From an uncultured delta proteobacterium (GTDB lineage Bacteria; Desulfobacterota; Desulfobacteria; Desulfobacterales; SG8-13), in the NCBI GenBank assembly GCA_963848135.1, contig CAWKCK010000017.1, positions 248,001 through 312,000 of the forward strand: DNA of 64,000 nt, read 5' to 3'. The notes beneath the pieces are model-generated. The model worked only from the letters and a program-made list of their open reading frames with translations. It was not told the DNA's origin and did no database searches. Positions 6,566 through 64,000 of this stretch are shown piece by piece. A program made the position numbers and the translations under genes. Numbering within the stretch: the first letter of the stretch is position 1; each line of letters opens with the position of its first letter.

Positions 6566-6612
6566 TCCTTTGTAATCGGATGAAACCTTCAGATTTGATT
6601 GGTACAAAATAA

Positions 6613-47492: not shown

Positions 47493-48464
47493 ATGGATGC
47501 CCAGTTTTATATCGACGGCGTTTTAGAACGGAATCGGGGCCTCATCGCCAAATCCATAACGTTGATCGAAAGCTCCCTGCCAATCCACCAGGAAACAGCC
47601 CAAACGATCATTGATAGCCTCCTGCCTTACGCCGGAAACGCCATGCGCATCGGTATTACCGGTGTGCCGGGAGTCGGCAAGAGCACCTTCATCGAAAGCT
47701 TCGGCATGATGCTGGTCGCAGAGGGCCACAACGTTGCCGTACTGGCTGTCGATCCGAGTAGTTCGAGAAGCGGCGGCAGTGTTTTGGGAGACAAGACACG
47801 CATGGAAAAACTGTCTATGCATGCGAATGCCTTTATAAGGCCGTCTCCCACCAGTGGCACTCTGGGGGGTGTTGCCAAAAAAACCCGCGAAACCATGATT
47901 GTCTGTGAGGCGGCCGGTTTTGATATTATTCTGGTTGAAACGGTCGGTGTCGGTCAGTCCGAAACGAGTGTGGCATCCATGGTTGATTTCTTCCTGGTGC
48001 TGATGCTGGCCGGAGCGGGCGACGAGCTTCAGGGGATTAAAAAGGGTATATTGGAGTTGGCCGACGCGATAGCGATCAACAAGGCCGATGGTAACAACAT
48101 CGATAGAGCCATGGAGGCCCGCAACGAGTATGCATCAGCGCTGAACTTGATGGAATCGAAATCTTCGGTCTGGGACGTACCGGTTCTGACCTGCAGCGCC
48201 TTAACCAAAGATGGCCTGAACAATATCTGGGCAACCATCCGTGATCATCACCAGAAACTTTCAGCCGCCGGAGAATTGACCGATAAGCGGCAATCTCAAT
48301 CGATCGACTGGATGTGGTCCTTGGTAGAGGAGGGATTGAAAGATCGGTTTTTCAAGGATCCTGATGTTAAAAACCGTTTGCAGAAAACCATCGCTGCCGT
48401 CGAGAATGGTTTGACTTCACCTTCGGCTGCGGCCGGGGAACTGCTGCATTTGCATGGAAAATAA
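47493..48464 (+). CDS. meaB: MeaB/ArgK G-protein chaperone
   Basis: GITGVPGVGKST, AVDPSS, GDKTRM, ETVGVGQSE, GDELQGIKKG, NKAD. Confidence 0.95.
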   Translation: MDAQFYIDGVLERNRGLIAKSITLIESSLPIHQETAQTIIDSLLPYAGNAMRIGITGVPGVGKSTFIESFGMMLVAEGHNVAVLAVDPSSSRSGGSVLGDKTRMEKLSMHANAFIRPSPTSGTLGGVAKKTRETMIVCEAAGFDIILVETVGVGQSETSVASMVDFFLVLMLAGAGDELQGIKKGILELADAIAINKADGNNIDRAMEARNEYASALNLMESKSSVWDVPVLTCSALTKDGLNNIWATIRDHHQKLSAAGELTDKRQSQSIDWMWSLVEEGLKDRFFKDPDVKNRLQKTIAAVENGLTSPSAAAGELLHLHGK

Positions 48465-49301
48465 CAACCATTTTCAAAAATTGACGAACCGTCTCCCAGC
48501 TATCCCTTCCGACTGAGCGCACCGGCGATGATATTCGGCCACGACATCGTCGAAAATGCTGAAATTCTGGCGACACTGGTTGATAATGTCGAAATCGTCC
48601 TGTTTCACACCCCCACCCAAAACAACTATCTATCTCGGCGGGACATTGCCAAGCTGTCTGAGATCAGCCGACAGACCGGGGTGAGCTATACCGTGCATTT
48701 GCCGACGGCGCTCGAAGTCGCTTCAACCGACTACAGGCGCCGTAAAGAGTCCGTCCGACTGGCGAAGGCGCTCATCGAACAAACCCTTGATTTTAAACCC
48801 TTGCATTATATTCTCCATGTTCCCTACTCTCCACCGACTCTGGTGTATGAGCCGGGAATGTATTTCAAACGCATCAGCAGTTCAGCGTGGCAGAACTGGC
48901 TGAGGCGGGCCACCGGCAGCCTGATTGAAATTACTACGGTTATCGGTAAGGCCGCCGAATTACTGCTCGAAAACATCAACTACTCGGTGTGTTATCTCGA
49001 GCCGCTGGTGCAAAAACGGTTTTGTGGCCTCTGCTTGGATGTGGGCCATCTTCTTCTGGGCCAGGAGCCGGTGACTCCTGAAATTGTACGGCATCGCGAA
49101 GTCATTAGGGAAATCCACATTCATGGAGTCAAGGGCCACACTGATCATCACACCTTAAGCATCCTTCCGCAGAAAAGGCTGTCAAAATGGCTGCAGCAAA
49201 TGGCGAATATGGGCTTTTCGGGTATTTGTAATCTGGAAGTGTTCTCCCCGGCCGACCTGAAATCTTCGGTCGATCTTATCGACCAAATAGGGAGGCAGTG
49301 A
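48454..49301 (+). CDS. TIM-barrel AP-endonuclease-2 family protein, CbiR-like cobamide-remodelling phosphodiesterase (probable -1 error at A run 48476-48480)
   Basis: YPFRL, YTVHLP, LLEN, CLDVGHL, IHIHG, DH, LEVF; adjacent to B12-handling genes. Confidence 0.7.
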
Positions 49302-49306
49302 CGGTT

Positions 49307-49591
49307 TTATGAATATTCCGGTTGCGGATCATCGGTGTCGTCGTTATGCTGGAAGGCATATCGGCTCCAGAGCTGGGCGTCCCGACAGCCAAGAACAGTC
49401 GCCGCATCCATATCATTTGTTGCCATCTGATAATTTCCGAGTCGGTAGTGACACACACCTCTCATGAAGTACGCCTCCGCCCGGTTAAAATTGTTTTCGA
49501 TTGCCAGGGTGAATGCGTCAACCGCCTCAGATAGCTTACCGGTGCGGCTTAGTCGGCATCCTATCGCATAAATTTCAGGGGTTGCATTCAC
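49307..49591 (-). CDS. Small TPR protein
   Basis: EAVDAFTLAI..., AEAYFMRGVCHYRLGNY. Confidence 0.75.
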   Translation of the reverse strand: MNATPEIYAIGCRLSRTGKLSEAVDAFTLAIENNFNRAEAYFMRGVCHYRLGNYQMATNDMDAATVLGCRDAQLWSRYAFQHNDDTDDPQPEYS

Positions 49592-49666
49592 GTGTCTATT
49601 GCCGATTCATAATAGGGTCGATGGATGTATTTTGCCAGTTTCGATATAATGAATTCCACAGCGATT

Positions 49667-50455
49667 TCACTTTTTATCCCCCTGGCTTGGGCCATCCAAA
49701 GTCGCTGCCCTTTGGCATTCGCAAATAGACAAATAATCACTCAACCGATCGGCGATCTGCTGGGTGGTCATCACCTTTCCCTTGGAAACGACATTTCCGT
49801 CGATGACCAGACCGGGGGTAACGAAAACCCCCATTTCACGAAAATATGAAATATCGGTCCGCTTTCGAACCAACAACTGGTCACCGTTATCGGATTGGGC
49901 AACCGCCTGGACGACGTTGTCATATAACATGTTGCATTTTTCACATCCGGGGCCCAAAACTTCCACGATGTACTGATGTGGGCTGACGCCCGCGCCGTCG
50001 CCCCAATACGCATGAATCCACTTTCTCACCATCTGGCGGTCGGGCACGCTCCCCTGATGGAGTAAGCGCCCCCCCATCACCAGAGCGGGCGTCATCAGAA
50101 TACCAGCGTTGTATGCGGCGCATTCGCAGGGACGCAACGCCTCGTCCAATGCCGGGGACCACTGGGTCGCGGCCGTTGGGCAGCAGGCCGATTCCCGATC
50201 GGGTCCGTCAATCAAGGCGTGTATCTTCTCCCAGTCGACATCAAGGCCGGCTTTACGGGCGACATCCTTTGCGGTTCCCGGTTCAAGACCGAGAGATGAT
50301 GCAAAATGGCGGGCCTCTTCACTCGTATAGGATAGGTGCCTCACGGTTGCCGGGACACCAGCCGCGGCGACAATGTCCTTTACCATCCGGGTCAGGAAAT
50401 CACAGCGCGGACACGGCGGTTCAGTGCCAATAATCCAGATTTCCCCAGGTGTCAT
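49667..50455 (-). CDS. Two-domain thioredoxin-family protein (MTH895/Thioredoxin_3-like)
   Basis: PPCPRC...MTPALV and VLGPGCEKC...VTPGLVIDG. Confidence 0.85.
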   Translation of the reverse strand: MTPGEIWIIGTEPPCPRCDFLTRMVKDIVAAAGVPATVRHLSYTSEEARHFASSLGLEPGTAKDVARKAGLDVDWEKIHALIDGPDRESACCPTAATQWSPALDEALRPCECAAYNAGILMTPALVMGGRLLHQGSVPDRQMVRKWIHAYWGDGAGVSPHQYIVEVLGPGCEKCNMLYDNVVQAVAQSDNGDQLLVRKRTDISYFREMGVFVTPGLVIDGNVVSKGKVMTTQQIADRLSDYLSICECQRAATLDGPSQGDKK

Positions 50456-50489
50456 CGTCTTTCCTTCTCGCCTCTGGTTGGATGTTCGT

Positions 50490-50738
50490 TCAGTCTTTCA
50501 GCAGCGCAACGATCCGCTCAGTTTTAAATACCTTTCCTTGTGCGACCACCATCCCCTCGATGATCAGGGCCGGGCTGAGCAGCAAACCGTACCGCTCGCG
50601 TATTTCCGGAGCCAGAGCCCACTTCTTTTCCACCGTTGCCTCCAAGCCGACGATGGTGACGGCTTTTTTTGTATGTTCCAACAGATCGTTGCACTGTTCG
50701 CAGGGTGGATCCAGACCAACCACTTCGATATGTATCAT
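50490..50738 (-). CDS. Small thioredoxin-family protein
   Basis: PPCEQC...SPALIIEG..GKV. Confidence 0.85.
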   Translation of the reverse strand: MIHIEVVGLDPPCEQCNDLLEHTKKAVTIVGLEATVEKKWALAPEIRERYGLLLSPALIIEGMVVAQGKVFKTERIVALLKD

Positions 50739-51883
50739 GATCCGAGGTTTTCCTTTTTTCGGTAAGGAGGGTTGGGATAGGCCGGGCTGAAGCACTGCAG
50801 ATCGACGATGTCGATCTGCAGAGACAAAGGTTCCGTCATAGCGTTAAGGGCATCGCGCACAACGGTTTCCAAATCCACCGGTTCCATTTTAACGCGGGCA
50901 TTTATCAGCAGCGTGCCGCCGGATGCCTTCTGGTCGGTCTGCGTGCCAAGGCGAGGATCGGAGTGGAGGTCGGTAAGGTTGGCCCATGTTGATTTGCCGG
51001 CGGAAGTAAACACAAGTTTCAGATGGCCGATGCCGGCATTTCGCTGTCGAAGCGCATCCCGAATCGTCAGCAAAAATCCCAGCATCAGCTCCCCCGGGAG
51101 AATAGGCGCTTTGGACCGGACCTTAACCGCCGCGTTGAGCCAGCCCAGAACCGCCTCGGCCTGCGCATACCGGTCATAGTCGATCTGCCGCAGCACGGTG
51201 TCGGCTCCGGGCCGACCACTGAGAAGGATTTCCAACCAGGTGTGCATGCCCATACCCTGCAGGGCGGATGTGGCGAGAATCTCCTTGCCCGGAAAACGAC
51301 CTCGAATGGCTTTTTGGATACGATCCTTCTCCGATGGTTCTATCAGGTCGCACTTGTTGAGTACGATGAGGTCCGCTTCCTCAAGCTGCTTTTCGAAGAG
51401 GTAGGCCACCTCTTCGGGAAAGGTCGATTCAGTCTCCTTCAAAAGCAGCTCGCGCACGCGATCCGGATCGACCATGGTGGAAAAGGGAGCGAAGGTGAAT
51501 GTGTCCCGGTAATGTATCTTGATGGGATTGGCGACGGCAGCGACAAAATCGGTGCAGCTGCCCACCGGTTCACCCAGGAGAATGTCCGGTTCGTAAATAA
51601 GTATTTTTTCGATCTGATGAATCAAGTCATCGAATTTGCAGCAGAAGCATCCCTCAACCACCTCCTCGATCGGCACATTCAGTTCGGCAAGCATCTGTCG
51701 AACAATGACCGTGTCGGCCAGGTTACCGCTCTGATCGTTGGTGACGATGCCCACGCGCATCCCCCTGCGGATGATGTCCCGGGCCAAGACCCCAAGCGCG
51801 GTGGTCTTGCCCGAGCCAAGGAATCCGCCAACAAAAGTCAGTTTAACCGGTTTGGCTGTGTTCAGCGGTTGGGGAATTTGCAT
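50735..51883 (-). CDS. CobW/COG0523-like GTPase
   Basis: GGFLGSGKTT, TNDQ, GCFCC, EPVGSC, NKCD. Confidence 0.9.
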   Translation of the reverse strand: MQIPQPLNTAKPVKLTFVGGFLGSGKTTALGVLARDIIRRGMRVGIVTNDQSGNLADTVIVRQMLAELNVPIEEVVEGCFCCKFDDLIHQIEKILIYEPDILLGEPVGSCTDFVAAVANPIKIHYRDTFTFAPFSTMVDPDRVRELLLKETESTFPEEVAYLFEKQLEEADLIVLNKCDLIEPSEKDRIQKAIRGRFPGKEILATSALQGMGMHTWLEILLSGRPGADTVLRQIDYDRYAQAEAVLGWLNAAVKVRSKAPILPGELMLGFLLTIRDALRQRNAGIGHLKLVFTSAGKSTWANLTDLHSDPRLGTQTDQKASGGTLLINARVKMEPVDLETVVRDALNAMTEPLSLQIDIVDLQCFSPAYPNPPYRKKENLGS

Positions 51884-52320
51884 GGTGGTCCTCCCTCTGC
51901 CCTGGTCGGTTCCAGAGTCGTCGATAGGTGGGGCAGAACAGCGGTTGGATAGGCGCTGCGGGCCTGATCGAAAAATTTGCCGATCAACGCCATTTGATTG
52001 GTGAGGGTCCCAATCCAGCGCCATAAGCACTCCCCACCGGCATCGGTCAGAAAGTAGCGGCGTTTGGCCGGCCCTTTTACGCCAACGTCCCATTCACTGA
52101 TCACCATTCCCCGTTTCTCCAGTATGTTGAGGTGGCGGTACAGGCCGGCCAGATTCAAACCGGCTTGAGTATCTTCCAGGTAACTGCTGACGATCTTACC
52201 GATTTCATAGCCGTGAATGCCGTTTTGTTTGAACAGGGTCAGCAGAATCCACGGTGCCGCCAGGTTCCGCATGTTTTTGCCCGTGCACGGGCAGTCCCGG
52301 TCGATAGAAGTCATGGGCAC
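51862..52320 (-). CDS. PadR-family regulator with N-terminal CPC motif
   Basis: HGYEI, LYRHL..LE..G, GPAKRRYFLTDAG. Confidence 0.9.
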   Translation of the reverse strand: MPMTSIDRDCPCTGKNMRNLAAPWILLTLFKQNGIHGYEIGKIVSSYLEDTQAGLNLAGLYRHLNILEKRGMVISEWDVGVKGPAKRRYFLTDAGGECLWRWIGTLTNQMALIGKFFDQARSAYPTAVLPHLSTTLEPTRAEGGPPCKFPNR

Positions 52321-52330
52321 AACAATCCAC

Positions 52331-52369
52331 TTTGCTCACATATTCGACAATGTCGAATATGTGAGCAAA
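52331..52369. promoter_or_regulatory. Perfect 39-bp palindrome, probable operator
   Basis: TTTGCTCACATATTCGACA-A-TGTCGAATATGTGAGCAAA directly upstream of the PadR gene. Confidence 0.7.
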
Positions 52370-52463
52370 AAAATGTTTGCCGTGTATCTATATCTCAACA
52401 ATACCATCACCGATTCGTCAGTGCATTCGGTTGCGGTGCTTTTATCTTTCGAGACACCTGTTG

Positions 52464-53381
52464 TCAGCGCCCTGTCAAATAATCGCCGACATACTTGGCA
52501 GCCCGTGCGCCGTCGGCACAGGCAGTGAGAACCTGCCACATGTCCGTATCGCGTACATCACCGGCGGCAAAAAGGCCCGGAAACGAGGTCATGAGTTTGG
52601 TGTCTGTCGTCACGTACCCTTCCGGCGTCTTTTCGACCGGAAGATCGAGAAAAGCGGAATTCGGCCGCCACCCGACTGCCATAAATACGCCATCCACCGG
52701 CAGCTCGTTTTCTTCACCATCTGAAGATCGGATTGTGAGCGCCTCGATCAAGTCAAACCCTGTGATACCGATCACCTCGGTCCGGTCCATTATTACCAGA
52801 TTTTCCTGACCCGCCAAAAGATCGGCATGCGCGGCATCCATGATCAATTTCTCACTGCGGTGAATAAGGTATACTTTATCGGCTATTCTGGCAAGTGTCA
52901 TGGCATGCTGGGCTGCACTGTTGTCACTTCCGATTACAGCCAGTGCGGCATTTTGGTTGCGATACAGCGGGCCGTCGCAGACCGAACAGAAATTAACGCC
53001 TTTTAAATCCGCCTTCGCGGACGGAAGTCTTATGGGTACGCGCCCGGTGGCGATAATGGCGGTCGTGGCCGTATGCACCTGACCATTGACATCGGTCGCC
53101 TGGAATACTCCGTCCCCTTGCCCAAGCGTCTTCAGTCGGGCCATCGTAAAAAATGCGCCTTCGGTTTGGGCTTGTTGAAACAGCTTGACGCCGAATTCGG
53201 TCCCGGCAATGCCACCGATAAATCCGGGATAATTTTCTATCTTTTCGATCATATAAACATTGCCGCCCGGAATGTCGCCAAAAACGATGGTGCTCAAACC
53301 CAAGCGCTGGCCATAAAGCGCGGCCGTCAGTCCAGCCGGTCCAGTACCGATAATAACGATATCATAGTGGTTATCTGGCAT
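52464..53381 (-). CDS. trxB: Thioredoxin reductase family flavoprotein
   Basis: IIGTGPAGLTAA, ENYPG, FCSVCDG, GLFAAGDV; NADPH motif atypical (GSDNSA). Confidence 0.88.
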   Translation of the reverse strand: MPDNHYDIVIIGTGPAGLTAALYGQRLGLSTIVFGDIPGGNVYMIEKIENYPGFIGGIAGTEFGVKLFQQAQTEGAFFTMARLKTLGQGDGVFQATDVNGQVHTATTAIIATGRVPIRLPSAKADLKGVNFCSVCDGPLYRNQNAALAVIGSDNSAAQHAMTLARIADKVYLIHRSEKLIMDAAHADLLAGQENLVIMDRTEVIGITGFDLIEALTIRSSDGEENELPVDGVFMAVGWRPNSAFLDLPVEKTPEGYVTTDTKLMTSFPGLFAAGDVRDTDMWQVLTACADGARAAKYVGDYLTGR

Positions 53382-53492
53382 GTCGTCCCTGAGAATTGAA
53401 AAAAGGTTGGTTTGATATATTGAATTGCAACATTAAACCAAAGGCGTATTCAGGTCTGATCCGGATATCGGAATTCTAAATAAAAACAGCCC

Positions 53493-54524
53493 TTAGTCTG
53501 AATAAGGCTGATAGACGCCCAGACTGACCCAGTTGCCGCTTAGGGTGGCCGCGCCAATGCCGTCCATCGCATCCGGTGGCCCGATGACGACGATGACGTT
53601 TTTGTGCTTGATGCGACCCGGCGGGATCCGGGAGTTCTCGAGCGTCCAATCTCCCATCACGTAGTTAAATATCAGCATGCTACCGTTTGCTTCGACAAAC
53701 CCTTTGGCACGCACGACAGTCGCGGGTAGCGCGTCGGCCATATTTTTGACCTGCTCCAGGTCGTCACCGGTCCACCGGTAGGCCACGGATACCAGAAGAT
53801 CTGGAGGAGTAATCTCCAGGTCGGGGCTATCGAGCAGATCATCGAGAAAACGGTCCAGTTCCTCTTCCGACATGACCACTTCCGGCTTTTGCTCTGTTTT
53901 GCGGATATCCTTGTTGCGCGTGTCGTCAAAGGCAATAGTAAAAAACTTTTCTAAGGGAATGTCGGAATAATTGGTCTCGAAAAATAGCGGATCCGGGTGA
54001 AACTTACGGATTACATCTCTTGTCTTCGCGATAGTCTCTGCCGCAGCGGTGTCGATCTTGTTGATGATGAACACGCTGGAGGAAGCGATCTGCTTCTCCA
54101 GTGACGCGTATACTTCGTATGCATCCAGGAAATGGGCGGCATCGATTATGCAGAACTGCTCCTTGAATTTGAACCGGTTTTCGAAAATGGGCAGTTGGAG
54201 GTCTTTCTTGAGGTCTGAAGGATTGGCCACTCCTGTCGATTCGATCAATAGCACGTCGGGCTTTACATTGGTGTTAAGCGCGTAAAGTCCCTTGATGAAA
54301 TCGGTCTTTACACAGACACAGAAAATGGAGCCCTTGCTGATCTCCATCATATCGATGTCTTCACCCTCGACCAGAGTGCCATCTACCCCGATCTCGCCGA
54401 ATTCGTTCACCAGAAGGGTCAGTCTTTTATCCTTGGGAAATCGGCCGATAATCCGGTTGAGGAATGTGGTTTTGCCGGAACCGAGGAAACCGGTAATCAA
54501 GTAAACTTCAGTAGAATGGGCCAT
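53493..54524 (-). CDS. CobW/COG0523-like GTPase
   Basis: TGFLGSGKTT, NEFGEIGVDG, SIFCVC, ESTGVANP, NKID, RAKG. Confidence 0.92.
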   Translation of the reverse strand: MAHSTEVYLITGFLGSGKTTFLNRIIGRFPKDKRLTLLVNEFGEIGVDGTLVEGEDIDMMEISKGSIFCVCVKTDFIKGLYALNTNVKPDVLLIESTGVANPSDLKKDLQLPIFENRFKFKEQFCIIDAAHFLDAYEVYASLEKQIASSSVFIINKIDTAAAETIAKTRDVIRKFHPDPLFFETNYSDIPLEKFFTIAFDDTRNKDIRKTEQKPEVVMSEEELDRFLDDLLDSPDLEITPPDLLVSVAYRWTGDDLEQVKNMADALPATVVRAKGFVEANGSMLIFNYVMGDWTLENSRIPPGRIKHKNVIVVIGPPDAMDGIGAATLSGNWVSLGVYQPYSD

Positions 54525-54527
54525 GGA

Positions 54528-54773
54528 TTATAACTTCTCCGCTATCTTTTTCTGGATTTCTGCCGTCGGAAGAACCTTGCCGACTGAAATGACTTCTCCA
54601 TCGATGACAAGCCCCGGGGTCACAAATACACCCATTTGAGTGAAGTATTTTATGTCGGTTATTTTTTTGACTTCGATCCCGGCCCCAGCATCGAATTCTG
54701 CCGAAGCCGACACCGCATTTTCATAAAGTTGGTCACACCGTTTGCAGCCTGGGCCCAGCACTTCGACTTTCAT
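54528..54773 (-). CDS. Small thioredoxin-family protein (MTH895-like)
   Basis: MKVEVLGPGCKRC...VTPGLVIDG. Confidence 0.92.
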   Translation of the reverse strand: MKVEVLGPGCKRCDQLYENAVSASAEFDAGAGIEVKKITDIKYFTQMGVFVTPGLVIDGEVISVGKVLPTAEIQKKIAEKL

Positions 54774-54947
54774 TGTTCATCTCCTTGTGAATTCAGGTTC
54801 AGGAGGGTTTCATTGTGCTCAAAACCACAATGCCTGAACGTTACGTTTCCCCTTGTTACACGCTTTTGGGGATATGTGCATCGCGGCCGTCGCAGCAACT
54901 GTTGGTTAACGCGCAACGCAGAAATCGTCTCTTCTGAACTGACCATA

Positions 54948-55274
54948 TTACCCACCAACCAGCACGTTGGCCTGGCCTGCCTTTACAAGCAGTTCTAAGG
55001 GATTTTGGCAGAATTTACAGACACCCAACGGAGAAGACCCTGGGTTGAGTTCATGCCAAAGGACGCCATATCGTTCGGTATCTTCGGCATTGACGCGTTG
55101 GGGCAGGTTGTCAGGTGTTTCGAGCTTGTGGATACGGTCGGACTTTCCGCAATAGGGGCATTTGATACCAAAGAGTGCCATATCTGTCTGGGGAAGGCTG
55201 TTGGTGATGATCAACGTCTTCAGTTGCTCGACGGCAGCATGTCTTTCCACCGTTCTGAACGCTCCTTCATCCAT
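54948..55274 (-). CDS. Hypothetical zinc-binding protein
   Basis: CPYCGKSD...GVCKFC. Confidence 0.7.
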   Translation of the reverse strand: MDEGAFRTVERHAAVEQLKTLIITNSLPQTDMALFGIKCPYCGKSDRIHKLETPDNLPQRVNAEDTERYGVLWHELNPGSSPLGVCKFCQNPLELLVKAGQANVLVGG

Positions 55275-55326
55275 TGAAAGCCCATCCGAGCCCCAGGGGG
55301 GACCCGGATGGTTACATACACTATGG

Positions 55327-55731
55327 TTACTTGACTTTGGAGTCCACTCGGGTCGACTGTCCGGCACCGGCTTTTGCCAGGTTTTCCTGGATCTTGTCGA
55401 ACTCAAAGCCGACCTCCCGAAGCGAAATGATCCGTTGCTTCATCGCTTCGTTGGGGGCTCTTTTGGCCATCTCATCGATGAGCTCCTCGTATTGAGGGAT
55501 GATGCTTTCGAACACGAGGTCCCTTTCGATGCAGATGGTCGGCAAAACTTTGCCTTTGAGCTCGAGGAACTTGCCGATACCGTCTTTGTTCTTGATCGAC
55601 CATTCCTTGTAAACAATCATTTCCTGCACATCTGAGGGCAGGGCGGCAATCGACTCCATCATGTAGCCACAGGCCGCGCACTGCACGCTGTCCAGGGTTA
55701 AAACATCAATGGTAATTTTATCTTCTGCCAT
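55327..55731 (-). CDS. Thioredoxin-fold protein (CAAC)
   Basis: SVQCAACGYM, LPTICI..LVFESIIP; strong AGGAGG RBS. Confidence 0.85.
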   Translation of the reverse strand: MAEDKITIDVLTLDSVQCAACGYMMESIAALPSDVQEMIVYKEWSIKNKDGIGKFLELKGKVLPTICIERDLVFESIIPQYEELIDEMAKRAPNEAMKQRIISLREVGFEFDKIQENLAKAGAGQSTRVDSKVK

Positions 55732-55758
55732 GATCCGAATCCTCCTTTCGCGAATGGT

Positions 55759-56793
55759 TTACCAAGATTCCGGATACTTGGCATAGTACTGATCATACCA
55801 ATCTCTGGCTTCGAGCGCTTGGTCCATATGTTCCACCGGAACATCATAGGGCATGTCTCACCCAGGTGCGAACGTGTATCCGTGCTGACCTCCAGCAGCG
55901 AGACTCACGATGGCATCTTCTCTGGGTGATAGCAGCCCCAGGCTCAGAGCCAGGGTCAACTTCAGGTTGCCACCGAACCCAACGCCGTGTTTGCGGGCCA
56001 GGTCGCGGACAAAGGTCAAGTTGAGTTGCTCGTCGATGGCAAACCCGTGGGTACCGAGTTTGCAGACGTCTTCCATTACCTTGGTGCAGTCGCCGCAGAT
56101 GAAGAACGAGGACGTCTTGCCGGCATCATGTATCGCCTTGATGGCCGGCTGGCAGTTCGGGGTAACGAATTCTTGGAAAGTTTCGGATTTGATTTGAGAG
56201 GCAACCGGGTCGACGATGGCAACGATGTCGCAGCCCATTTCCGCATAAAATTGGGCGGCAAGGGCACCGACTTCACCGGCATATTTGAGTATTTGGTGGG
56301 CGAATTCCTTATGTTTGTACACGTCCGTGAAAATACGCACACCGGCCAGATGGGAGGCCAGGGTCAAAGGGCCGCAGAATAGACCCATCAGCGAACAGTC
56401 GAGTTCTTCAAGCTGGGGTTTGGCAATTTTTGCCGCTTCAAATATCACCGGCCACCGCCCGGAGTCTTTAGTGGGCATCGTCAAACCGGCCTCGGACGGT
56501 GTTTTGCCAGAGCACGGATGCGTGGTGACTGAAGGAACGTTGTCATCCCACCACTTGAGTTCACACCCTACAGAGTTGGCTTCCACTGACAGATCGAACA
56601 GCAGTGGAATACCATCGGCCTTGTAACGTTTGGCCGCGTTGACAACACCTTTTGCAAGGAGTTCGGGGTCTTTGAGCATTTTTTCCGCCGGCTCATTGAT
56701 CAAAAATGCACAATGAACCCCAGCGTACGGTACCCAGGGAGCTTTTTCGGTCCTCTTGCCCCGGTAGGCATCAATCAGCATTTGTTTGGCCAT
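55759..56793 (-). CDS. Selenocysteine-containing MtaA/UroD-family corrinoid methyltransferase, 344 aa
   Basis: DLSVEA, GPLTLA, DPVAS, FICG, GNL, then APG-TGA(55860-55858)-DMPYDVPVEHMDQALEARDWYDQYYAKYPESW*; paralog reads MPGCDL; SECIS-like hairpin follows. Confidence 0.9.
55828..55844 (-). promoter_or_regulatory. SECIS-like hairpin
   Basis: AUGUUCC-GGU-GGAACAU, a perfect 7-bp stem starting after a 13-nt spacer from the UGA. Confidence 0.8.
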
Positions 56794-57035
56794 GAATCTG
56801 TCTCCTTTCAGAATGTCGACATTAAACGCTTTCATTATCCAAGTTACCGTTTTTCTATCTCTCACCTCCCTTCCGAAATAATGGCCTTAAAGTATGATTT
56901 GTGGTTAACAACACGATTCAGCGTTTCCGCAACAACGCGCTGACAATATTAACGCACTATTAAATTTAGAACTGACTTTGTCAAATGAACTCTTTCCGGC
57001 AGCCCTTTTTCATTCAAAACCCGTAAAGGCTTTTT

Positions 57036-57651
57036 TTATTCCAGCAGGATAATTCCATAATAATTAAAGGTCTCACCGGTGCTCGTGGCCACCTTCGATG
57101 AGGTTCCTAAATTCTTGAGCGTGCCGATGACGTCGATGGAAAACGATTCCACCGAGGGCCTTTTTTCCTGGGGAAAGCGGCACTCATCGGGATACGCACA
57201 GGTTTTGCATAGGGCGCAGCATTCACCCACCAGGCTGAACGCTTTGTAATACCCCTCCAAGAAAAGCATCCGCTCAATTCCGATGGTGCCCTTCCAGCAT
57301 TTTACCTGCATGCCGCGCTTGCGTCCGTTATTGCGGTAAAAATCGGCGCAGGTTTTGCTGCCCACCAGTAGCAGCGCGGTGGTATATTCGCTCAGAACCT
57401 TGCGCACCTTTTCGGGACGGGGAGTGGCCGGCGGGCAGCACCAGTTGGTGCTGTAATTCTTGCAGCCATAGCGACACTTCAGGTGCACCCATTCGGACAC
57501 GAGGAGTTTATCGACGCTGAAAGGGAATACAGCATTCAAGCCCGTATTTTTTCCCTTTTTCGAGCAGGCGTTTCAGCAGGTCGTTCGAGATACCTTGGTC
57601 GGTCTTGAATGGGACGACATTTGGTTTTTTCAAATTGATATGGCGGCTCAT
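57036..57651 (-). CDS. DUF2284 metal-binding protein (+1 frameshift at ~57541)
   Basis: KCRYGC..Y..NWCCPP, CALCKTC...C.F...RPSVESFSIDV; upstream frame MSRHINLKK...LLEKGKKYG. Confidence 0.82.
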
Positions 57652-57653
57652 TG

Positions 57654-58016
57654 TCAAGCTTCACTCTCGCTTCCAGGCTGAAATTTAATGCGAACGTCTT
57701 TGGGCAAGGCCATGTCCATGGCGACTTCTACGACTTTCAGAACGGCCGATGGGATCGCACAGGACGGGTGGCAGCCCGATTTTTCAGCCGCAATGTACAC
57801 AGGGTTGCGGGTCAGGGGTAGAAAAAGATCTTTCAAGGTCATCTCGGTCAGACCATCTGCAAGACGCTTGATCTGTTGGCATTCCGAACCCGATATTTCC
57901 ACGATTACTGATCGCTTACCTGTCTTACGGGCCTTGATCGTGCAGGCAAATCCGCAGATCCCAGGATCTGCAGTTATGAAGGCAACTTTCGGCGTATCGG
58001 CAGTGTCGGCGCTCAA
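57654..58016 (-). CDS. DUF6951-like Cys-containing protein
   Basis: DPGICGF, SEC, CHPSCAIP, ALPKDV. Confidence 0.7.
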   Translation of the reverse strand: MSADTADTPKVAFITADPGICGFACTIKARKTGKRSVIVEISGSECQQIKRLADGLTEMTLKDLFLPLTRNPVYIAAEKSGCHPSCAIPSAVLKVVEVAMDMALPKDVRIKFQPGSESEA

Positions 58017-58160
58017 GATAATGTTCCCATCGATCGGCAGCAGCTTTGCGTGAGTGTGGTCAAATAATCGTCTTTATTCTGCGGTTGCAATCCAACGCTG
58101 TGAATAGGAAACCGGACGGGATCCCCGACAGCAATTTCCACCGTCGGGGATCCGGCAAGC

Positions 58161-60223
58161 TTATTGATCGAGAATTTCGTCCGGCACGATGCCGCGCAGA
58201 TGCGGGAATTCATCGGTCATGTGGGGCATCTGCATGGCTTCCATGAATTCCTGCTGGAAGTTGGGCTCCACTGTCAGCTCGATGTATTCCACGTTACGCG
58301 AACACCAATTGGCTTCGACTGCGTTTTTTCACATTCAGCAGGGCCGCACGGCAGCCATCACCGGCCGCATTGCCCACACTCTGGATCATCTCGATCTCAC
58401 AGTCCGGGAACAACCCCATGATCAGCGCCTTGGTGCGATCAACGTGGGTGCCGAAAGCCCCGGCAATTTTGACCTTGTCTAATTTTTCGAGACCCATGCG
58501 CTGGACCATCAGCTTGCAACCGGCATACAGGGCACCCTTGGCCAGCTGAATCTGTCGGATGTCCTTCTGGGTGATGACGATATCCTGATCGATGCTCGAC
58601 TCCTCGGCCCAGGCCAGCACGAACTCAGGCTGGTTGGTGTCCGGGTTTTTCCGAAACCGTGAAAACTCCTTGAGTCCCTTTTTGTTGAAAACGCCGCTCT
58701 TGGTGATGACGCCGCTGGTGTAAAGCTCGGCGAGCACGTCCAGAATCCCCGACCCGCAGATGCCCTTGGCCTTCATCTCTTTCGGCTCGGAGAACTTGCG
58801 CCAGGCATCGCGACCGATAACCTTGTAGTCGACTTCCTTGGTCTCGGGATCGATCTCGATGCGCTCGATAGCCCCGGGAGCCGCGCGCATACCGTAGGAC
58901 AGCTGGGCGCCTTCGAGGGCCGGCCCTGTGGCGCAGGAGGACGAGATCAGCTTGTGCCGGTTGCCCAGCACCAGCTCACCGTTGGTGCCGATGTCGATGA
59001 TCAGCTGGTTTTCCTCGTGCTTGTACGGTTCTTCGGCGATCAACACGCCCACGTTGTCCGCACCGACGAAACCGGCTTCGTTGGGCAGCACGAACATGTA
59101 GGAGGACGGGTTGATGCAGACACCCAGATCGCGGGCCTTGATGTCGATACTGTGGTGGATGACCGGCGGAAACGGCGCCAGTCCCACGTACTCGGGGTTC
59201 AGCCCCAGCAGGATGTGGTGCATGGCCGTATTGAAACCGATGGTGATGTCTTCGACATCTCCGGTCTCCAGCCGCAGATAGGTTTTGCCCTCTTCGGGCA
59301 CTTCCACGTATTCCACCGGGCCCTTCTTCGCCCTTTTTCTTCTTTTTCTTCTTCTTGGGCGGATGGGTGCCGGCCACGGCCTTTTCGACGAGCTCGTTGA
59401 TGCCCTCGATGATGTCGTCACTCATGCGCTTAAGCCCGTCGGGGGTGGTCATGTGGAAGGTAATGCGGGCCATGACGTCCTCACCGTATTTGCACTGGGG
59501 GTTCATCATGGAGACCGTATCGATCACCTCCATCGTGGTCAGGTCACAGAAATAAGCCGCCACGGTCGTGGTCCCCACGTCGATGGCCAGTCCGTAGGCG
59601 TGCTCGACCTTTCCCGGGCGCACACGGATAATCTCTTTGTCGTTCCAGACACTGACGGTTACTGCCCATTTGCCCTCCCGCAGCGCATCGGGAAGTGCAC
59701 GCAAGGTAAAAATGTCGGCGGTCAGGTTTTGCAAGCCGTACTCCTGCTCAAGCCTCCGGCATATGCGTTCGAAGTCGGCCGTCGGTTCCTCGAAAGTGGG
59801 CGGATCGACTTCGACGTAATACAGGCGTATGGCCGGGTTGTGGTCGATGGGGATGTCGCGAGCCGCCTTGCTGACGACCTGTTTACCGGCCCGGGATTCC
59901 TCGGGCACAAAAACCAGCATGTCACCCTGGACTGTGGCCACACACCCCAACCGAAATCCCTTTTCCTTCCGATCGGGGTTGATGAACTTGTCTTCTTCCT
60001 CCTGCCAAGCGCTGCAGTTGGACTTACTGGAAGTGATGCCGTATTTTTCGAAATGGCCTTCCTCCACGCGCACAATGCATTTTCCGCAAACTTTCTTTTC
60101 GCCGCACAACGCTTCGATGTCCACACCCAAAAGCCGTGAGGCTTCAATGAGGTTGACGCCTTTGGGCACTTCACCTCTGCGCCCGGAAGGCTGAAATATC
60201 ACCATTGCCTTATCAGAATCCAT
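58161..60223 (-). CDS. ATP-dependent corrinoid reductive activator (RACo/DUF4445 ASKHA) with N-terminal [2Fe-2S]; +1 frameshifts at ~59320 and ~58320
   Basis: CGEKKVCGKC..RLGC, AIDVGTTT, NPQ..YGEDV, GFVGAD, DIGTNGE, ATGPALEG, GICGSG, ITQKDIRQIQLAKGA, AGAFG, GNAAG; corrected C-terminus ...VEYIEL...FQQEFMEAM...DQ*. Confidence 0.92.
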
Positions 60224-60541
60224 TCGTAACTGCTCCTTATCCGGATTATCAACCGCAGGAGACGGGCTCCCGTGATTATCTACTTGTCATCAGAGAATCA
60301 ACGCACTGCCGATTCTTCCGCTCAAATTACGTCGATCGTGTTTCTCCGTTGCCTATAACTGTACCGCATGAACACCTGCCGCCCGCCGCTTCAAAAGGAA
60401 TGACGGCACCGGTCTTTGCGGATGGGGTCCGGTGGTTGAATTCTGTTGAATCGCCAATCACCGGTGCCGTCTGGGCTGAGGGCGACGATGCTCAAAGATC
60501 CCATCAGCCCAGACATATCACCATAAAGAGTTTGAAGCGGC

Positions 60542-61207
60542 TTATCCTTTATTCCGCATCTCACGCAGCCGGCCGATCATCTTGATACCTTCCGACACCG
60601 CGTTCCCGGCTGATTCGGCGTAACCGTCAGCACCGAACAGGTTGGCGACATCCTTGGTCACCGGAGCACCACCCAGCATGATGGCCACGTTGGGGTTTTT
60701 CTCCTTGATCATCGCGATGACCTTTTTCATGCCCAGCATTGTCGTGGTCATCATCGCACTCATGGCCACCACCTCACTATCGGTACGAAGCTGCTCCTCG
60801 ACAAAATTCTCCAACGGCACATCGCGGCCCAAATCGTGAACCTCCCAGCCGGCCACGTCAAACATCATCTTCACCAGGTTCTTGCCGATGTCGTGCACAT
60901 CGCCCTGGATCGAACCGATGACCACCTGAGCGTTGATCCCGTCTGTCTGCTTGGGCACATGCGGTCGCAAAATGGCCAGTCCTGCATACAGTGCATCGGC
61001 GCACATCAACACTTCGGGCACGAAATATTCGTTTTTATCGTAAAGCTCACCGACAATCTCCATCCCGGCAGCCAGGCCGTCCATAATACCGTCCAATGGG
61101 ACTTGTCCGTCATCCAGCCATGCCTGGGCAGCTTCCTTGACCGTGTCCTCTTCGTACTCGACTACACCGTTTTTCATCTGTTCGATAAGTTCTTCTTTCG
61201 TTGCCAT
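60542..61207 (-). CDS. Methyltransferase corrinoid protein (MtaC/MttC-like)
   Basis: GDVHDIGKNLV (DxHxxG), SAMMTTT, GGAP. Confidence 0.95.
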   Translation of the reverse strand: MATKEELIEQMKNGVVEYEEDTVKEAAQAWLDDGQVPLDGIMDGLAAGMEIVGELYDKNEYFVPEVLMCADALYAGLAILRPHVPKQTDGINAQVVIGSIQGDVHDIGKNLVKMMFDVAGWEVHDLGRDVPLENFVEEQLRTDSEVVAMSAMMTTTMLGMKKVIAMIKEKNPNVAIMLGGAPVTKDVANLFGADGYAESAGNAVSEGIKMIGRLREMRNKG

Positions 61208-61275
61208 TGAATCCTTCTCCTTATTGTTAAATGAAAAGCCCTCTCTCTTGCCAACGGTCCTCGGCGCGAGAATTA

Positions 61276-62328
61276 TTAAAGCCGGCCAACAGCCGGGCTC
61301 GGATTCTTTCCGTACGTGTGGGCCGTGTCCACACAGGCCTTCATGTTTTCATCCTTAATGGCCGGCCACAAGTCGCAACCGGGCATGACAGCGTCCACAC
61401 CACCGTCGATCATGTCCTTAATGTGATCGATAGCAACCTGTTTGGGAGTTTCGGGGTCACAGGTCATCTTGTACGTGTCCACGTTCCCCATGAACAGGAC
61501 ATCCGGCCCCAGGATTTCGCGTCCCTTGCGAACATCACACTTGATGTCGACGGTCAAGCCGTCGGCACCGCATTCGTTCATCATGGCCAACAGCGGTTCG
61601 GTCTGACCGCAGATGTGCAGCAGTTTGGGTGATTTCCAGGCCGCCAGGATTCTGGTCAATCGCGGTTGGATAAACTCTTTAAAGGTCCGCGGGCTCAACA
61701 AATCCGCCGCCACACCGGGTTCGCGCAAAGTGATGTAATCGCAACCGGCCGCCTGAAGCTTCAAACCGATCTTGATGATCATGTCGGTGAGTTTGTCGAG
61801 AACATTGGCCACCATTTCTTTCTGTTTGAAAACTCCTTTGAGCATCAGATCCAATTCCAACATTTGGCCGGCCTGGGTAAACGGACCCAGTTGCCAGCAG
61901 CCGATGGGCAGATCCGGGGCTTCTTTCTTGATGATCTCGATCGCCTTGGGCAGCATCGGCAGACGCCCCAATTCGGTGATGTTTTCCGGAATTTCAACCT
62001 CTTCAAGAGTTGACCAAATTTTATTGGGAATTGTCGGGTAGAGAATATCCTCGGAATCCTCGTACAAACTGATCGTGTTGCCCACGGCTTCAGACTCCAT
62101 GGTCATGTCGTAGGGTATAACCACACAGTCGAAGTTCATCATCTTGGCCGACCAGATGGCTGATTGGGCCATGCGCTCGGCGTCGGTATGAACGGTAGCA
62201 AACTTTAAATTGGCCTTTTCGATACCCGGCATTACCACCATTCCCATACCGCTGAAAAATGGCATGGTGTCGATCGGTTCCTTACGCAGAAGACGCATGA
62301 CGCGTTCCTTGGGTGTCAGTTCCGCCAT
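61276..62328 (-). CDS. MtaA/CmuA (UroD-fold) methylcobamide methyltransferase
   Basis: GPFT, LLSP..F, Zn ligands HICG and PGCD. Confidence 0.9.
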   Translation of the reverse strand: MAELTPKERVMRLLRKEPIDTMPFFSGMGMVVMPGIEKANLKFATVHTDAERMAQSAIWSAKMMNFDCVVIPYDMTMESEAVGNTISLYEDSEDILYPTIPNKIWSTLEEVEIPENITELGRLPMLPKAIEIIKKEAPDLPIGCWQLGPFTQAGQMLELDLMLKGVFKQKEMVANVLDKLTDMIIKIGLKLQAAGCDYITLREPGVAADLLSPRTFKEFIQPRLTRILAAWKSPKLLHICGQTEPLLAMMNECGADGLTVDIKCDVRKGREILGPDVLFMGNVDTYKMTCDPETPKQVAIDHIKDMIDGGVDAVMPGCDLWPAIKDENMKACVDTAHTYGKNPSPAVGRL

Positions 62329-62382
62329 AATGTGACTCCTTTCTCAATGGTACCCAAACGTATAAGTGGGTTAAAACCAGGT

Positions 62383-63339
62383 TTAGGCCAATGACTTCAG
62401 TTGTTCCACGAAATCGGGAAACAGTTTGAACAGTGGGTGATTCGGGTCCTTGGGCAGCTTCTTGGTTTCAGCAAAAGCTGCCGTGGCCAGAAAGGCATCA
62501 GCCTCGGCGACTGCCGGCAGGATGCGTGTGGCACCCGCCATGGGGCCCGAAAATATCATGTCATGAAAGAAGAAGGCTGAAAGGGATTCTAAGGCCGCAT
62601 CGGTAGCCGACCATCCCTTGAAGTCCCACATGTCCTTAAAACGTTTCAAATCCATGTAGGAACCATTGCTCGGAGCGCTGGCCGTCGGAAAGCCCCATTT
62701 CTCTTTGACCATCCGATTGGCGATACCGCAAAACGCCGTGGCCGGCCCATTCATCACCGAGGTGTCGACAAAAATACTTTCGAACTTGGCGCCCACTTTA
62801 TCGATGGCGTCCAGCAGTCTCTGGGTGCCAGTGACGCGTCCGCTCGGCATCTGATCTTCCTGGTCGAATGCCACCAGGAGCACGTGTTTGACGCCGATAT
62901 CGGCAATTTCCTTGATTTCGGTTTCCAGATCCTTCTCCCAGACCGTCAGGCTGTTGTAAAACATACGGTCGAGCAACCCCTTTTCGGCACAATATGCCGC
63001 GCCCGCCAATTTGGGCTTCATCACCCAGGCGTCGATACAAAAAGGCATGCTGCTGACCTCACTGACGAAATCGATAAATGCTTTGAACTCATCACCCGTG
63101 TTGGCGACGATATCCGCCATTCCTGGTACGCCTGTTTCAGCCGTCAGGCGTTCCTGGGTCTTGAGGAGTTCCTCCGCCCGCTTTTCATCGAATCCTTCCT
63201 TGCGCTTGCCGGTAAACACCTTGTCGCCTTTCTGAAAAATCGAGCTGACGCATACGCAGGGGTACTCGCCGGGCTGCCCGCCAAATTTTACCCCACCAAC
63301 CTCGCAAACCTTTTGCTCGGTGCCGATTTGAAACATCAT
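62383..63339 (-). CDS. MtrH-family pterin:corrinoid methyltransferase (MtgA-like)
   Basis: EQKV..VGGVKFGGQPGEYP, SIF, PFCIDA, YNSL, VDT, GFPT..APSN. Confidence 0.88.
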   Translation of the reverse strand: MMFQIGTEQKVCEVGGVKFGGQPGEYPCVCVSSIFQKGDKVFTGKRKEGFDEKRAEELLKTQERLTAETGVPGMADIVANTGDEFKAFIDFVSEVSSMPFCIDAWVMKPKLAGAAYCAEKGLLDRMFYNSLTVWEKDLETEIKEIADIGVKHVLLVAFDQEDQMPSGRVTGTQRLLDAIDKVGAKFESIFVDTSVMNGPATAFCGIANRMVKEKWGFPTASAPSNGSYMDLKRFKDMWDFKGWSATDAALESLSAFFFHDMIFSGPMAGATRILPAVAEADAFLATAAFAETKKLPKDPNHPLFKLFPDFVEQLKSLA

Positions 63340-63736
63340 TTACCTCCTCTGTTCAAAATTTATTACACCTTCCCTACCACGGGAATAAACACTTCGGTCA
63401 TTATGGTAATATTGACAACATCCTTTTATATGAACGGACAGGAGCTGAACATAGTCCAATAGACGATTTTTCATGGGATCACAGATGATTTTGGTCACCT
63501 GGTATGGCCACACTGTAAAACTCTTTTATTGGGCGTGATAATGTTCTATGATGCTTGCAATAAGGGAATTCAACAGCCTGGATTAATTATTTATTTGATT
63601 TGTTTTATCGGTATATTGGGCGATACTCAAAGGTCCCAAATGCCATAGAACGATTCGCGGACTAAACCACAACCTTAGCTATGTAAAAGATAAATTAAAT
63701 AATAACAGATTTTTAAGTTTCAAAAGGTAATGTATT

Positions 63737-64000
63737 ATGAAAGAAAAATTTGCCCACTTGGTCGACAAAGCCATTGAACTGGGTGCCACCGATGCCAAAC
63801 AGATACCGGTCAGCAGCATCGTTTTCGATTCCAGGTCCTATTTGAAATGCCGCTTCGGTTGCAACCGGTGGGGTAAATACTGGACCTGTCCGCCCCATCT
63901 CGAAATTACGCCGGAACGGTTCATGGATGCCTTCGCTCAATACCACCAGGCGATCGTCATCAAATCCTCAGATCCCAAAATCGGGCAGGATGTCAGTGTG
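63737..64000 (+). CDS. DUF2284 metal-binding protein (partial)
   Basis: MKEKFAHLVDKAIELGATDAK...LKCRFGCNRWGKYWTCPPH; runs off the window. Confidence 0.82.
   Translation, partial: MKEKFAHLVDKAIELGATDAKQIPVSSIVFDSRSYLKCRFGCNRWGKYWTCPPHLEITPERFMDAFAQYHQAIVIKSSDPKIGQDVSV

Follow-up and report, generated by a model that had tools for sequence, protein, structure and literature searches.

A conserved in-frame UGA in a UroD-fold corrinoid methyltransferase-like gene of Desulfobacterota: evidence for a new selenoprotein family with a thioredoxin-like partner

The 64,000-nucleotide stretch of DNA analysed here (the window) belongs to contig CAWKCK010000017.1 of an uncultured delta proteobacterium, whose genome assembly comprises 6.03 Mb in 18 contigs. 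It carries a gene, named SecMT here, for a protein resembling corrinoid methyltransferases of the uroporphyrinogen decarboxylase (UroD) fold. Comparison of sequences indicates that codon 312 of SecMT, a UGA, is almost certainly decoded as selenocysteine (Sec) within a protein of 344 residues. Judging by its fold and gene context, SecMT is very likely a corrinoid methyltransferase with Sec in its catalytic centre. A first-pass annotation, made from the letters of the window, had proposed a hidden selenoprotein at this site. The proposal is borne out: the UGA, the tail behind it and a hairpin are conserved, homologues with Cys exist, and the genome contains the Sec machinery.

As read from the sequence, the SecMT frame starts at an ATG (56793-56791) preceded by an AGGAGA ribosome-binding site. 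It runs through ...TFAPG to the TGA (55860-55858), continues for 32 sense codons (DMPYDVPVEHMDQALEARDWYDQYYAKYPESW) and ends at a TAA (55761-55759). The TAA is followed by AAGGAGG and, 27 nt beyond it, by the next gene, which begins with an ATG at 55731. The 32-residue frame said to reach a TAA ahead of the next gene's ribosome-binding site is thus present. In an alignment with the Cys paralogue P0001 (61276-62328), MPGCDL stands opposite APG-TGA-DM of SecMT; the in-frame TGA at the paralogue's Cys position is therefore where the first-pass annotation had placed it, but on the minus strand.

The TGA is nearly invariant. Eighty loci were obtained by scanning one genome per prokaryote species, and a metagenome scan with the Cys form P0005 (described below) as query returned 80 further loci; the pattern that located the site in these loci contained no hairpin sequence. 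Codon 312 is TGA in 79 of the 80 species-genome loci, the contig of the 80th ending before the site, and in 79 of the 80 metagenome loci. Overall, the count is 158 of 160, and TAA or TAG never occurs. Wherever the contig permits, the genome loci have a conserved tail of 29 to 35 codons between the TGA and the stop. Most of their hosts are Desulfobacterota; the others include Desulfotomaculum copahuensis, an Olavius-associated Delta 1 symbiont (L032) and a metagenome-assembled genome (MAG) labelled Nitrospinaceae. The remaining metagenome locus (contig L178) has TGG (Trp) at codon 312; it is the sole sequence with CCA and GAG in the hairpin, its loop lacks the leading G, and it is possibly a decaying or repurposed copy. 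At positions 6001-6719 of a locus on a Desulfosarcina MAG chromosome (L102), the TGA and the hairpin are kept and the upstream part is not translatable in one frame, which is a frameshift or an assembly error.

Searching 5.8 billion proteins yielded 986 hits, and 117 of the best 120 are gene calls that stop at the TGA and have a length of exactly 311 residues. The three others of these 120 (P0005, P0052 and P0109; 75-81% identical to SecMT) are full-length, with Cys312 and a homologous tail, and a fourth full-length Cys312 form, P0123, is 62% identical. Cys also occupies the UGA column in the paralogue P0001 and in more distant relatives. The alternation of Cys and TGA together with a conserved hairpin, which the first-pass annotation had named as the pattern to look for, is therefore found among the homologues (TGA in 158 of 160 loci; four Cys forms). 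Among 1.84 billion cluster representatives there is one full-length relative at 62% identity (P0123), followed by relatives at 36-39%, and SecMT is rather isolated in this set. In a quick tree search with 71 Sec forms, the four Cys forms and seven outgroups, the Sec and Cys forms made up one clade on a long branch, with a Shimodaira–Hasegawa-like approximate likelihood ratio test (SH-aLRT) value of 100. Two Cys forms are located near the base of the clade and two within Sec clades; since support there is only 80-89 and the branches are long, the direction and number of the Sec/Cys switches are unsettled.

Nonsynonymous and synonymous differences (pN and pS) were computed over 71 gap-free sequences. 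The body of the gene (codons 1-311) has a pS of 0.73 and a pN/pS of 0.165, and the tail without the hairpin codons has a pS of 0.74 and a pN/pS of 0.176. The two ratios are about equal, and the tail therefore evolves as coding sequence; homologues that end at this codon with no downstream frame, the case that would have spoken against a hidden selenoprotein, were not seen among the genome loci whose contigs extend past it. The six hairpin codons have a pS of 0.046 and a pN of 0.040 (pN/pS 0.86); the low pN means that the nucleotides are frozen whatever the effect on the protein. Third-position entropy falls to 0 for codons +5 to +8 and to 0.10 for +9, compared with roughly 0.6-1.9 bits at most flanking degenerate codons. 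The fixed hairpin codons include GAT (76/76), GTT (76/76) and CCG (77/77), along with the third G of codon +8 (77/77). Two loci (L096 and L097) share a compensatory change of U-A to C-G in the hairpin stem.

Glu321 does not vary among the 140 unique Sec forms, and Val318 is altered once, to Ala, with a compensating change. Both residues are hairpin positions, and all four Cys forms have a replacement at one or the other, this decay of the hairpin in Cys forms being read from four protein sequences only. DNA of the Cys forms was sought by the metagenome scan with P0005, which returned none, only 79 Sec forms and the TGG variant. The nucleotide constraint thus travels with the UGA, as expected for a selenocysteine insertion sequence (SECIS).

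The hairpin itself was confirmed at 55844-55828 as the first-pass annotation had described it, a perfect AUGUUCC-GGU-GGAACAU with its loop beginning 21 nt past the UGA. It sits 13-29 nt downstream of UGA312; the G of the loop is the 21st nucleotide past the UGA, a spacing of 20 nt. With one bulged base the stem extends over 55823-55849. The minimum free energy (MFE) is -6.1 kcal/mol for the 17-mer alone and -9.4 to -9.8 kcal/mol for the extended stem. The bacterial SECIS (bSECIS) model, as quoted in a figure legend of PMC13188914, comprises a loop of 3-9 nt, a stem of 4-16 bp, a G in the first two loop positions, a distance of 16-37 nt from the UGA and an MFE of -7.5 kcal/mol or lower. The SecMT hairpin lies within all of these limits as given in that legend, with a loop G[G/U]N, a 7-bp stem, a 20-nt spacing and the MFE of the extended stem; on energy the 17-mer alone (-6.1) falls short. 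A SECIS just 3′ of the UGA with a G in its loop, as the first-pass annotation expected, hence agrees with the published rules in the form quoted there.

Two results weigh against this assignment. The fold of a 66-nt segment has a z-score of -1.25, with 24 of 200 shuffled sequences folding equally well, and is not significant, and a scan of positions 48000-64000 against Rfam, with E values up to 1, gave no match to a SECIS family. The Rfam result is uninformative because Rfam has few bacterial SECIS models. The hairpin is considered significant because of the comparative evidence and not because of its thermodynamics.

The genome encodes the machinery for Sec, the presence of which had been named as a check: selA (547 bits), selB (374), selD (372) and tRNA-Sec (76.5) are all present and score over curated cut-offs. 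The selD gene (G000:C3:479380-480300) contains one in-frame TGA and is thus a selenoprotein gene in its own right, and fdhA and five flpD genes also carry one such TGA apiece; the selD and flpD genes with TGA show that the organism is selenoprotein-rich. In six of these seven control genes the hairpin has a loop of 3-5 nt beginning with GG, 20-26 nt from the U of the UGA, and the SecMT hairpin is of the same kind. In the exception, flpD5, the fold puts a GUU loop further downstream. Altogether, 5 of the 10 FlpD/MvhD-like genes carry an in-frame TGA; the five loci are on contigs C5 and C18.

RNA-library contigs from three studies carry close relatives of the SecMT gene, and one of them (X18, record 19; 294 nt, two differences) bridges the UGA and reaches the TAA. 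These contigs are a weak hint that the gene is transcribed; their depth cannot rank expression, and DNA carry-over is possible.

The protein has the fold of UroD. The Pfam domain URO-D (PF01208) covers residues 3-331, spanning the UGA (E 8.9e-47; 160.2 bits against a cut-off of 23.9). An AlphaFold2 model built with 31 sequences has a mean predicted local distance difference test (pLDDT) score of 96.1; the tail includes a modelled helix at residues 320-336, with block pLDDT values of 96-97 up to residue 330. The top Foldseek matches are Methanosarcina mazei MtaA structures 4ay8 and 4ay7 (template modelling scores, TM, of 0.88 and 0.84), followed by uroporphyrinogen decarboxylases. MtaA is also the sole sequence match in the PDB (E 2e-25), with HICGN opposite FICGD and APGCG opposite APG-Sec-D. 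The score of SecMT is below the cut-offs of the NCBIfam models for MtaA/CmuA (TIGR01463; 125.8 against 235.4 bits), MtaA (NF040654; 105 against 400) and MtbA (NF041608; 87.6 against 600). The Cys paralogue P0001 is also just below NCBIfam cut-offs (213 against 235.4; 235.3 against 244). The earlier label of an MtaA-family methyltransferase therefore holds in that MtaA is the best structural match, and it does not extend to membership by score, which stays under the NCBIfam MtaA/CmuA cut-off.

According to another explanation, UGA312 would be an ordinary stop, the product would have 311 residues, and the hairpin would serve the downstream gene as an RNA element that regulates or stabilises. Public gene calls do end at this codon, both in the protein search (117 of the best 120) and in RefSeq (WP_246903014.1 and WP_066666435.1), and the hairpin lies about 100 nt ahead of the next start codon. 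Yet the 32 codons past the UGA evolve as coding sequence (pN/pS 0.176), and the tail is kept in the Cys homologues and lies within the Pfam domain and the confidently predicted fold. Moreover, the codon is UGA in 158 of 160 loci and never TAA or TAG, the others being one TGG and one contig end; relatives have Cys in this column, and the genome decodes Sec. An ordinary stop is accordingly extremely improbable.

In alignments with the paralogue and with MtaA (4ay7), Sec312 stands opposite the C-terminal Cys of the PGC motif, a residue which, from the motif and from structural work on MtaA, we take to be one of the zinc ligands of that enzyme. As judged by the alignment, Sec312 is at a zinc-ligand position, and the site is non-canonical. 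Cys233 and Sec312 are each present in all 140 unique sequences of the Sec family. According to the part of PMC10418091 used here, the zinc sphere of UroD-superfamily S-methyltransferases is His-Cys-Cys; the arrangement in SecMT, Phe231-x-Cys233...Sec312, departs from this canonical sphere of MtaA-type enzymes.

Several observations weigh against a zinc-ligand mechanism. All 140 unique Sec forms have Phe231 at the position of the zinc-triad His, and the nearest Cys-type clades mostly have Phe there as well; Cys236, the sole extra Cys nearby, is present in only 95 of the 140; and some methyltransferases of the UroD family do not require zinc (CdmB, according to the part of PMC13222342 used here). 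The first-pass annotation had placed Sec at the third zinc-ligand Cys. The alignment with that Cys stands, and the triad that it would complete does not, the His ligand being replaced throughout. Cys236 was considered as a replacement third ligand and rejected; besides its presence in only 95 of 140 sequences, it is missing from the Cys form P0109. Invariant residues that could supply the third ligand are His322, Asp254 and Glu255; all four Cys forms retain His322, and other family members have Asn in its place.

The genes around SecMT are given in Table 1. Along the minus strand the order is MtrH-like, Cys paralogue, corrinoid protein, RACo, DUF6951, DUF2284, a gap of 240 nt and SecMT, followed by Trx134, a small open reading frame (ORF), the Thioredoxin_3/ArsE-family gene, a COG0523 GTPase, the thioredoxin reductase-like gene, a second COG0523 GTPase and two Thioredoxin_3 genes. 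The Rfam scan of 48000-64000 (E up to 1) found no riboswitch in the 240-nt gap. The small ORF has only a faint Pfam match to a Zn-ribbon (E 0.06).

Table 1. Features of the SecMT locus in the window, with the gene and its elements first and the neighbouring genes in minus-strand order
Feature	Coordinates	Strand	Basis or remarks
SecMT, UroD-fold corrinoid methyltransferase-like selenoprotein (predicted)	55759..56793	minus	344 residues + TAA
UGA codon 312, read as selenocysteine	55858..55860	minus	TGA across loci, Cys at the same column in homologues
C-terminal extension, 32 codons past Sec, last barrel helix	55762..55857	minus	selection, Cys forms, model
SECIS core hairpin AUGUUCC-GGU-GGAACAU	55828..55844	minus	7 bp, 3-nt loop beginning with G
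MtrH-like	62383-63339	minus	Pfam
Cys paralogue, MtaA type (P0001)	61276-62328	minus	Pfam
Corrinoid protein	60542-61207	minus	Pfam
RACo reductive activator, two frames	58294-60223	minus	Pfam
DUF6951, Cys-rich	57654-58016	minus	Pfam 9.8e-29
DUF2284, Cys-rich	57036-57539	minus	Pfam 3.1e-44
Trx134, 134-residue thioredoxin-like partner, invariant LDSVQCAACGYM motif (CxxC)	55327..55731	minus	gene order, fusion
Small conserved ORF, CxxC...CxxC; real start probably internal	54948..55406	minus	tblastn 38-84% identity, many loci
Thioredoxin_3 / MTH895-ArsE family protein	54528..54773	minus	Pfam 1.6e-19; TIGR00412 74.5 bits, cut-off 62
COG0523 (CobW/ZigA-like) GTPase, putative metallochaperone	53493..54524	minus	Pfam cobW 4.4e-39 + CobW_C
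Thioredoxin-disulfide reductase-like flavoprotein	52464..53381	minus	Pyr_redox_2 3.1e-35; TIGR01292 257 bits, under cut-off 343
Second COG0523 GTPase	50735-52093	minus	domain searches
Two further Thioredoxin_3 proteins	50490-50795, 49667-50455	minus	domain searches

Much of this arrangement recurs in the 80 genome loci, the denominators below being loci with enough flanking DNA. Trx134 lies no more than 500 nt downstream in 69 of the 71 loci with at least 600 nt of downstream DNA. Further downstream are a COG0523 GTPase (44/53), a Thioredoxin_3/ArsE-family gene (33/53) and a thioredoxin reductase-like gene (32/51). On the upstream side, 42 of 47 loci encode a corrinoid protein within 4.5 kb and 33 of 47 encode RACo; DUF2284 is found in 44 of 70 and DUF6951 in 53 of 70, and in most loci these two genes separate RACo from SecMT.

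The C-terminal domain of a URO-D fusion protein, P0132, shares 44% identity with Trx134 (E 2e-20). The fusion of URO-D to Thioredoxin_3 is good evidence that Trx134 works with SecMT, and the gene order points the same way. Four relatives with 35-39% identity to SecMT (P0130, P0132, P0133 and P0134) have URO-D fused to one or two Thioredoxin_3 domains; like SecMT, they are without the zinc-triad His. No description of this domain pair was found in the literature on MtaA/Mlp proteins and selenoproteins that was examined.

Downstream of this one methyltransferase, at 49667-55731, there is an unusual accumulation of thioredoxin-like proteins (Trx134, the MTH895/ArsE-type protein, a protein of 101 residues and another that has three Thioredoxin_3 stretches), accompanied by two COG0523 GTPases and a thioredoxin reductase-like gene. 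RACo is split into overlapping frames at 58976-60223 and 58294-59421, with the break near 59320-59350 at an A/G-rich run encoding PKKKKKKKKG. The halves are in line in related loci; the split could reflect either a genuine frameshift or a homopolymer error in the assembly. DUF2284 has weak scores, far under the cut-offs, against the NCBIfam double-selenoprotein models MbdU and ArsM/DUF2284.

As the gene context suggests, the working partners of SecMT would be the corrinoid protein encoded nearby, RACo as activator and the MtrH-like methyl-tetrahydrofolate enzyme. Sec312 and the invariant Cys233 would constitute an active-site pair of chalcogenolates at the place where MtaA-type enzymes bind a thiol-activating zinc. 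Together with a third ligand (His322, Asp254 or Glu255), they could bind zinc or another soft metal, loaded by the COG0523 GTPase. The site would activate a soft sulfur or selenium nucleophile or leaving group, such as sulfide, methanethiol, selenide or methylselenol, and the methyl group would then pass to or from the corrinoid. The CxxC of Trx134, fed by the thioredoxin reductase-like enzyme, would keep the Cys/Sec pair reduced. This mechanism, a soft-metal site with COG0523 loading and a thioredoxin chain as reductant, is preferred tentatively, its probability being somewhat short of even. In the part of PMC10418091 used here, a Clostridium ljungdahlii protein resembling MtaA is reported to methylate selenide with methylcobalamin as the methyl donor, and clusters of this kind are linked to selenium metabolism; by analogy with the selenide result, methyl-selenium or methyl-sulfur compounds may be reasonable candidate substrates.

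The first-pass annotation had assigned Sec a non-redox role, which fits poorly with a near-obligatory CxxC partner and with the presence in the operon of a gene resembling thioredoxin reductase; because of this partner, its fusion and the reductase-like gene, a purely non-redox role is unproven. Sec312 and Cys233 might instead form a redox-active selenenylsulfide and no metal site. The thioredoxin reductase-like enzyme would then be the source of electrons, which the thioredoxin-like proteins and Trx134 would pass on to the Cys/Sec pair, and methyl transfer would be coupled to a reductive step, or the pair would be reduced at each turnover, as in glycine reductase or ArsM. The absence of the His ligand (140/140) is consistent with this, as are the CxxC partner in 69 of 71 loci and its fusion to Cys-type relatives, and the operon has at least four further Thioredoxin_3 proteins besides the reductase-like gene. 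The Foldseek list also contains entries titled 'oxidized', MetE (1xr2) and BHMT (1lt7), and the zinc-ligand cysteines of these two enzymes can form a disulfide. To our knowledge, however, no UroD-fold enzyme is a reductase, the context of corrinoid protein, RACo and MtrH indicates plain methyl transfer, and the thioredoxin-like proteins might just as well act in repair or carry metal or substrate. A redox-active pair is thus a possibility that we hold to be improbable on balance.

By analogy with ArsM and HgcA, Cys233, Sec312 and the CxxC of Trx134 could also bind a soft metal or metalloid, such as As(III), Hg(II) or Se/Te species, as a substrate to be methylated from the corrinoid or demethylated to it. 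DUF2284, with its scores against the ArsM/DUF2284 and MbdU models, adjoins SecMT, and an MTH895/ArsE-family gene and two COG0523 metallochaperone-like GTPases are nearby. Selenoprotein forms of ArsM and HgcA are listed in the part of PMC13188914 used here, and that of PMC10418091 ties MtaA-like proteins to methyl-selenium metabolism. On the other side, the annotated 49-64 kb part of the window showed no ars, mer or hgc genes, and the NCBIfam matches named for this explanation are all far under their cut-offs, leaving it to be drawn from context. Binding of a metalloid substrate therefore appears unlikely, and the soft-metal site that activates a sulfur or selenium compound is retained as the preferred mechanism.

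In RefSeq and UniRef, the 311-residue form is annotated as a "uroporphyrinogen decarboxylase family protein" in two isolates, Desulfatitalea alkaliphila (WP_246903014.1) and Desulfotomaculum copahuensis (WP_066666435.1); the JGI label is "MtaA/CmuA family methyltransferase". Term look-ups in the selenoprotein tables of reviews of 2022 and 2026 (PMC9312934 and PMC13188914, each used in part) gave no UroD/PF01208 or MtaA entry. The SecMT family is not listed in Tables 1 and 2 of the 2007 paper on the Olavius symbionts, the parts of that paper considered, though the Delta 1 MAG (L032) carries the gene. Full-text literature searches and term look-ups in selected papers found no report of a UroD/MtaA selenoprotein; supplementary selenoproteome tables, which lay outside this coverage, could list one. 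We rate SecMT as a new, nearly obligate Sec family that belongs to a known enzyme superfamily and has both a changed metal site and its own dedicated partner.

If this reading is correct, it adds a widespread selenoprotein family that every pipeline now cuts at the TGA. With gene calls cut in this way, including the RefSeq records of two cultured species, counts of the selenoproteome of Desulfobacterota are too low. Sec would also enter methyl-transfer chemistry of the zinc/thiolate type; we know of no natural zinc-selenolate site. The near-total preference for Sec over Cys suggests that the chalcogen matters for the SecMT reaction. The conserved CxxC partner, fused in Cys relatives, would define a two-component module, one not described in the examined parts of the MtaA/Mlp literature. 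SecMT might even be the first natural corrinoid methyltransferase with Sec at the catalytic metal or nucleophile site, near-obligatory (158 of 160 loci) and forming a two-protein unit with its dedicated CxxC partner, and it could be the so far unidentified enzyme with which sulfate reducers methylate or demethylate methanethiol/sulfide, methylselenol/selenide or a metalloid; this broader proposal is speculative and, as a whole, rather doubtful. Since two isolates, D. alkaliphila and D. copahuensis, carry the gene, it is directly testable.

Among known systems, the closest are the methylcobamide:coenzyme M methyltransferases MtaA, MtbA and MtsA, which share with SecMT the fold (TM 0.88) and the xICG and PG[C/U] motifs; MtaA-type genes are likewise clustered with those of a corrinoid protein and a reductive activator. 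SecMT differs from MtaA in being only about 25% identical to it and under the NCBIfam cut-offs, in having Phe for the triad His and Sec for the C-terminal ligand Cys, and in its near-obligatory thioredoxin-like partner; it is a protein of bacterial sulfate reducers, whereas MtaA is from a methanogen.

The Mlp proteins of type 1 mlp clusters, as presented in the part of PMC10418091 used here, are likewise MtaA-like proteins of anaerobic bacteria, encoded with a corrinoid protein and a RACE/RACo activator. They are statistically tied to selenium metabolism, and ClMlp2 moves methyl from methylcobalamin to selenide. The Mlps are Cys proteins with an (almost) invariable His-Cys-Cys, whereas SecMT lacks the His and has Sec; the two are set apart here by description only. 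A type 1 cluster is defined in the same source by orthologues of Mlp2 and Mlp3, a corrinoid protein, RACE and the absence of a tetrahydrofolate methyltransferase. Such clusters occur mostly in Firmicutes; the SecMT locus, in contrast, includes an MtrH-like gene, and its hosts are Desulfobacterota.

In the selenoproteins related to ArsM, MGMT, HgcA and CobW, according to the parts of PMC9312934 and PMC13188914 used here, Sec replaces an active-site or metal(loid)-binding Cys as in SecMT, the bacterial SECIS lies directly past the UGA and Cys homologues are rare; unlike SecMT, these proteins have other folds and cofactors (S-adenosylmethionine or none). The selenoproteins of glycine, betaine and sarcosine reductases resemble SecMT in being Sec enzymes encoded with their own thioredoxin system and in having Sec-Cys chemistry beside the transfer of C1 or C2 groups. 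Their folds are unrelated to that of SecMT, and reductive cleavage is a feature of the reductases.

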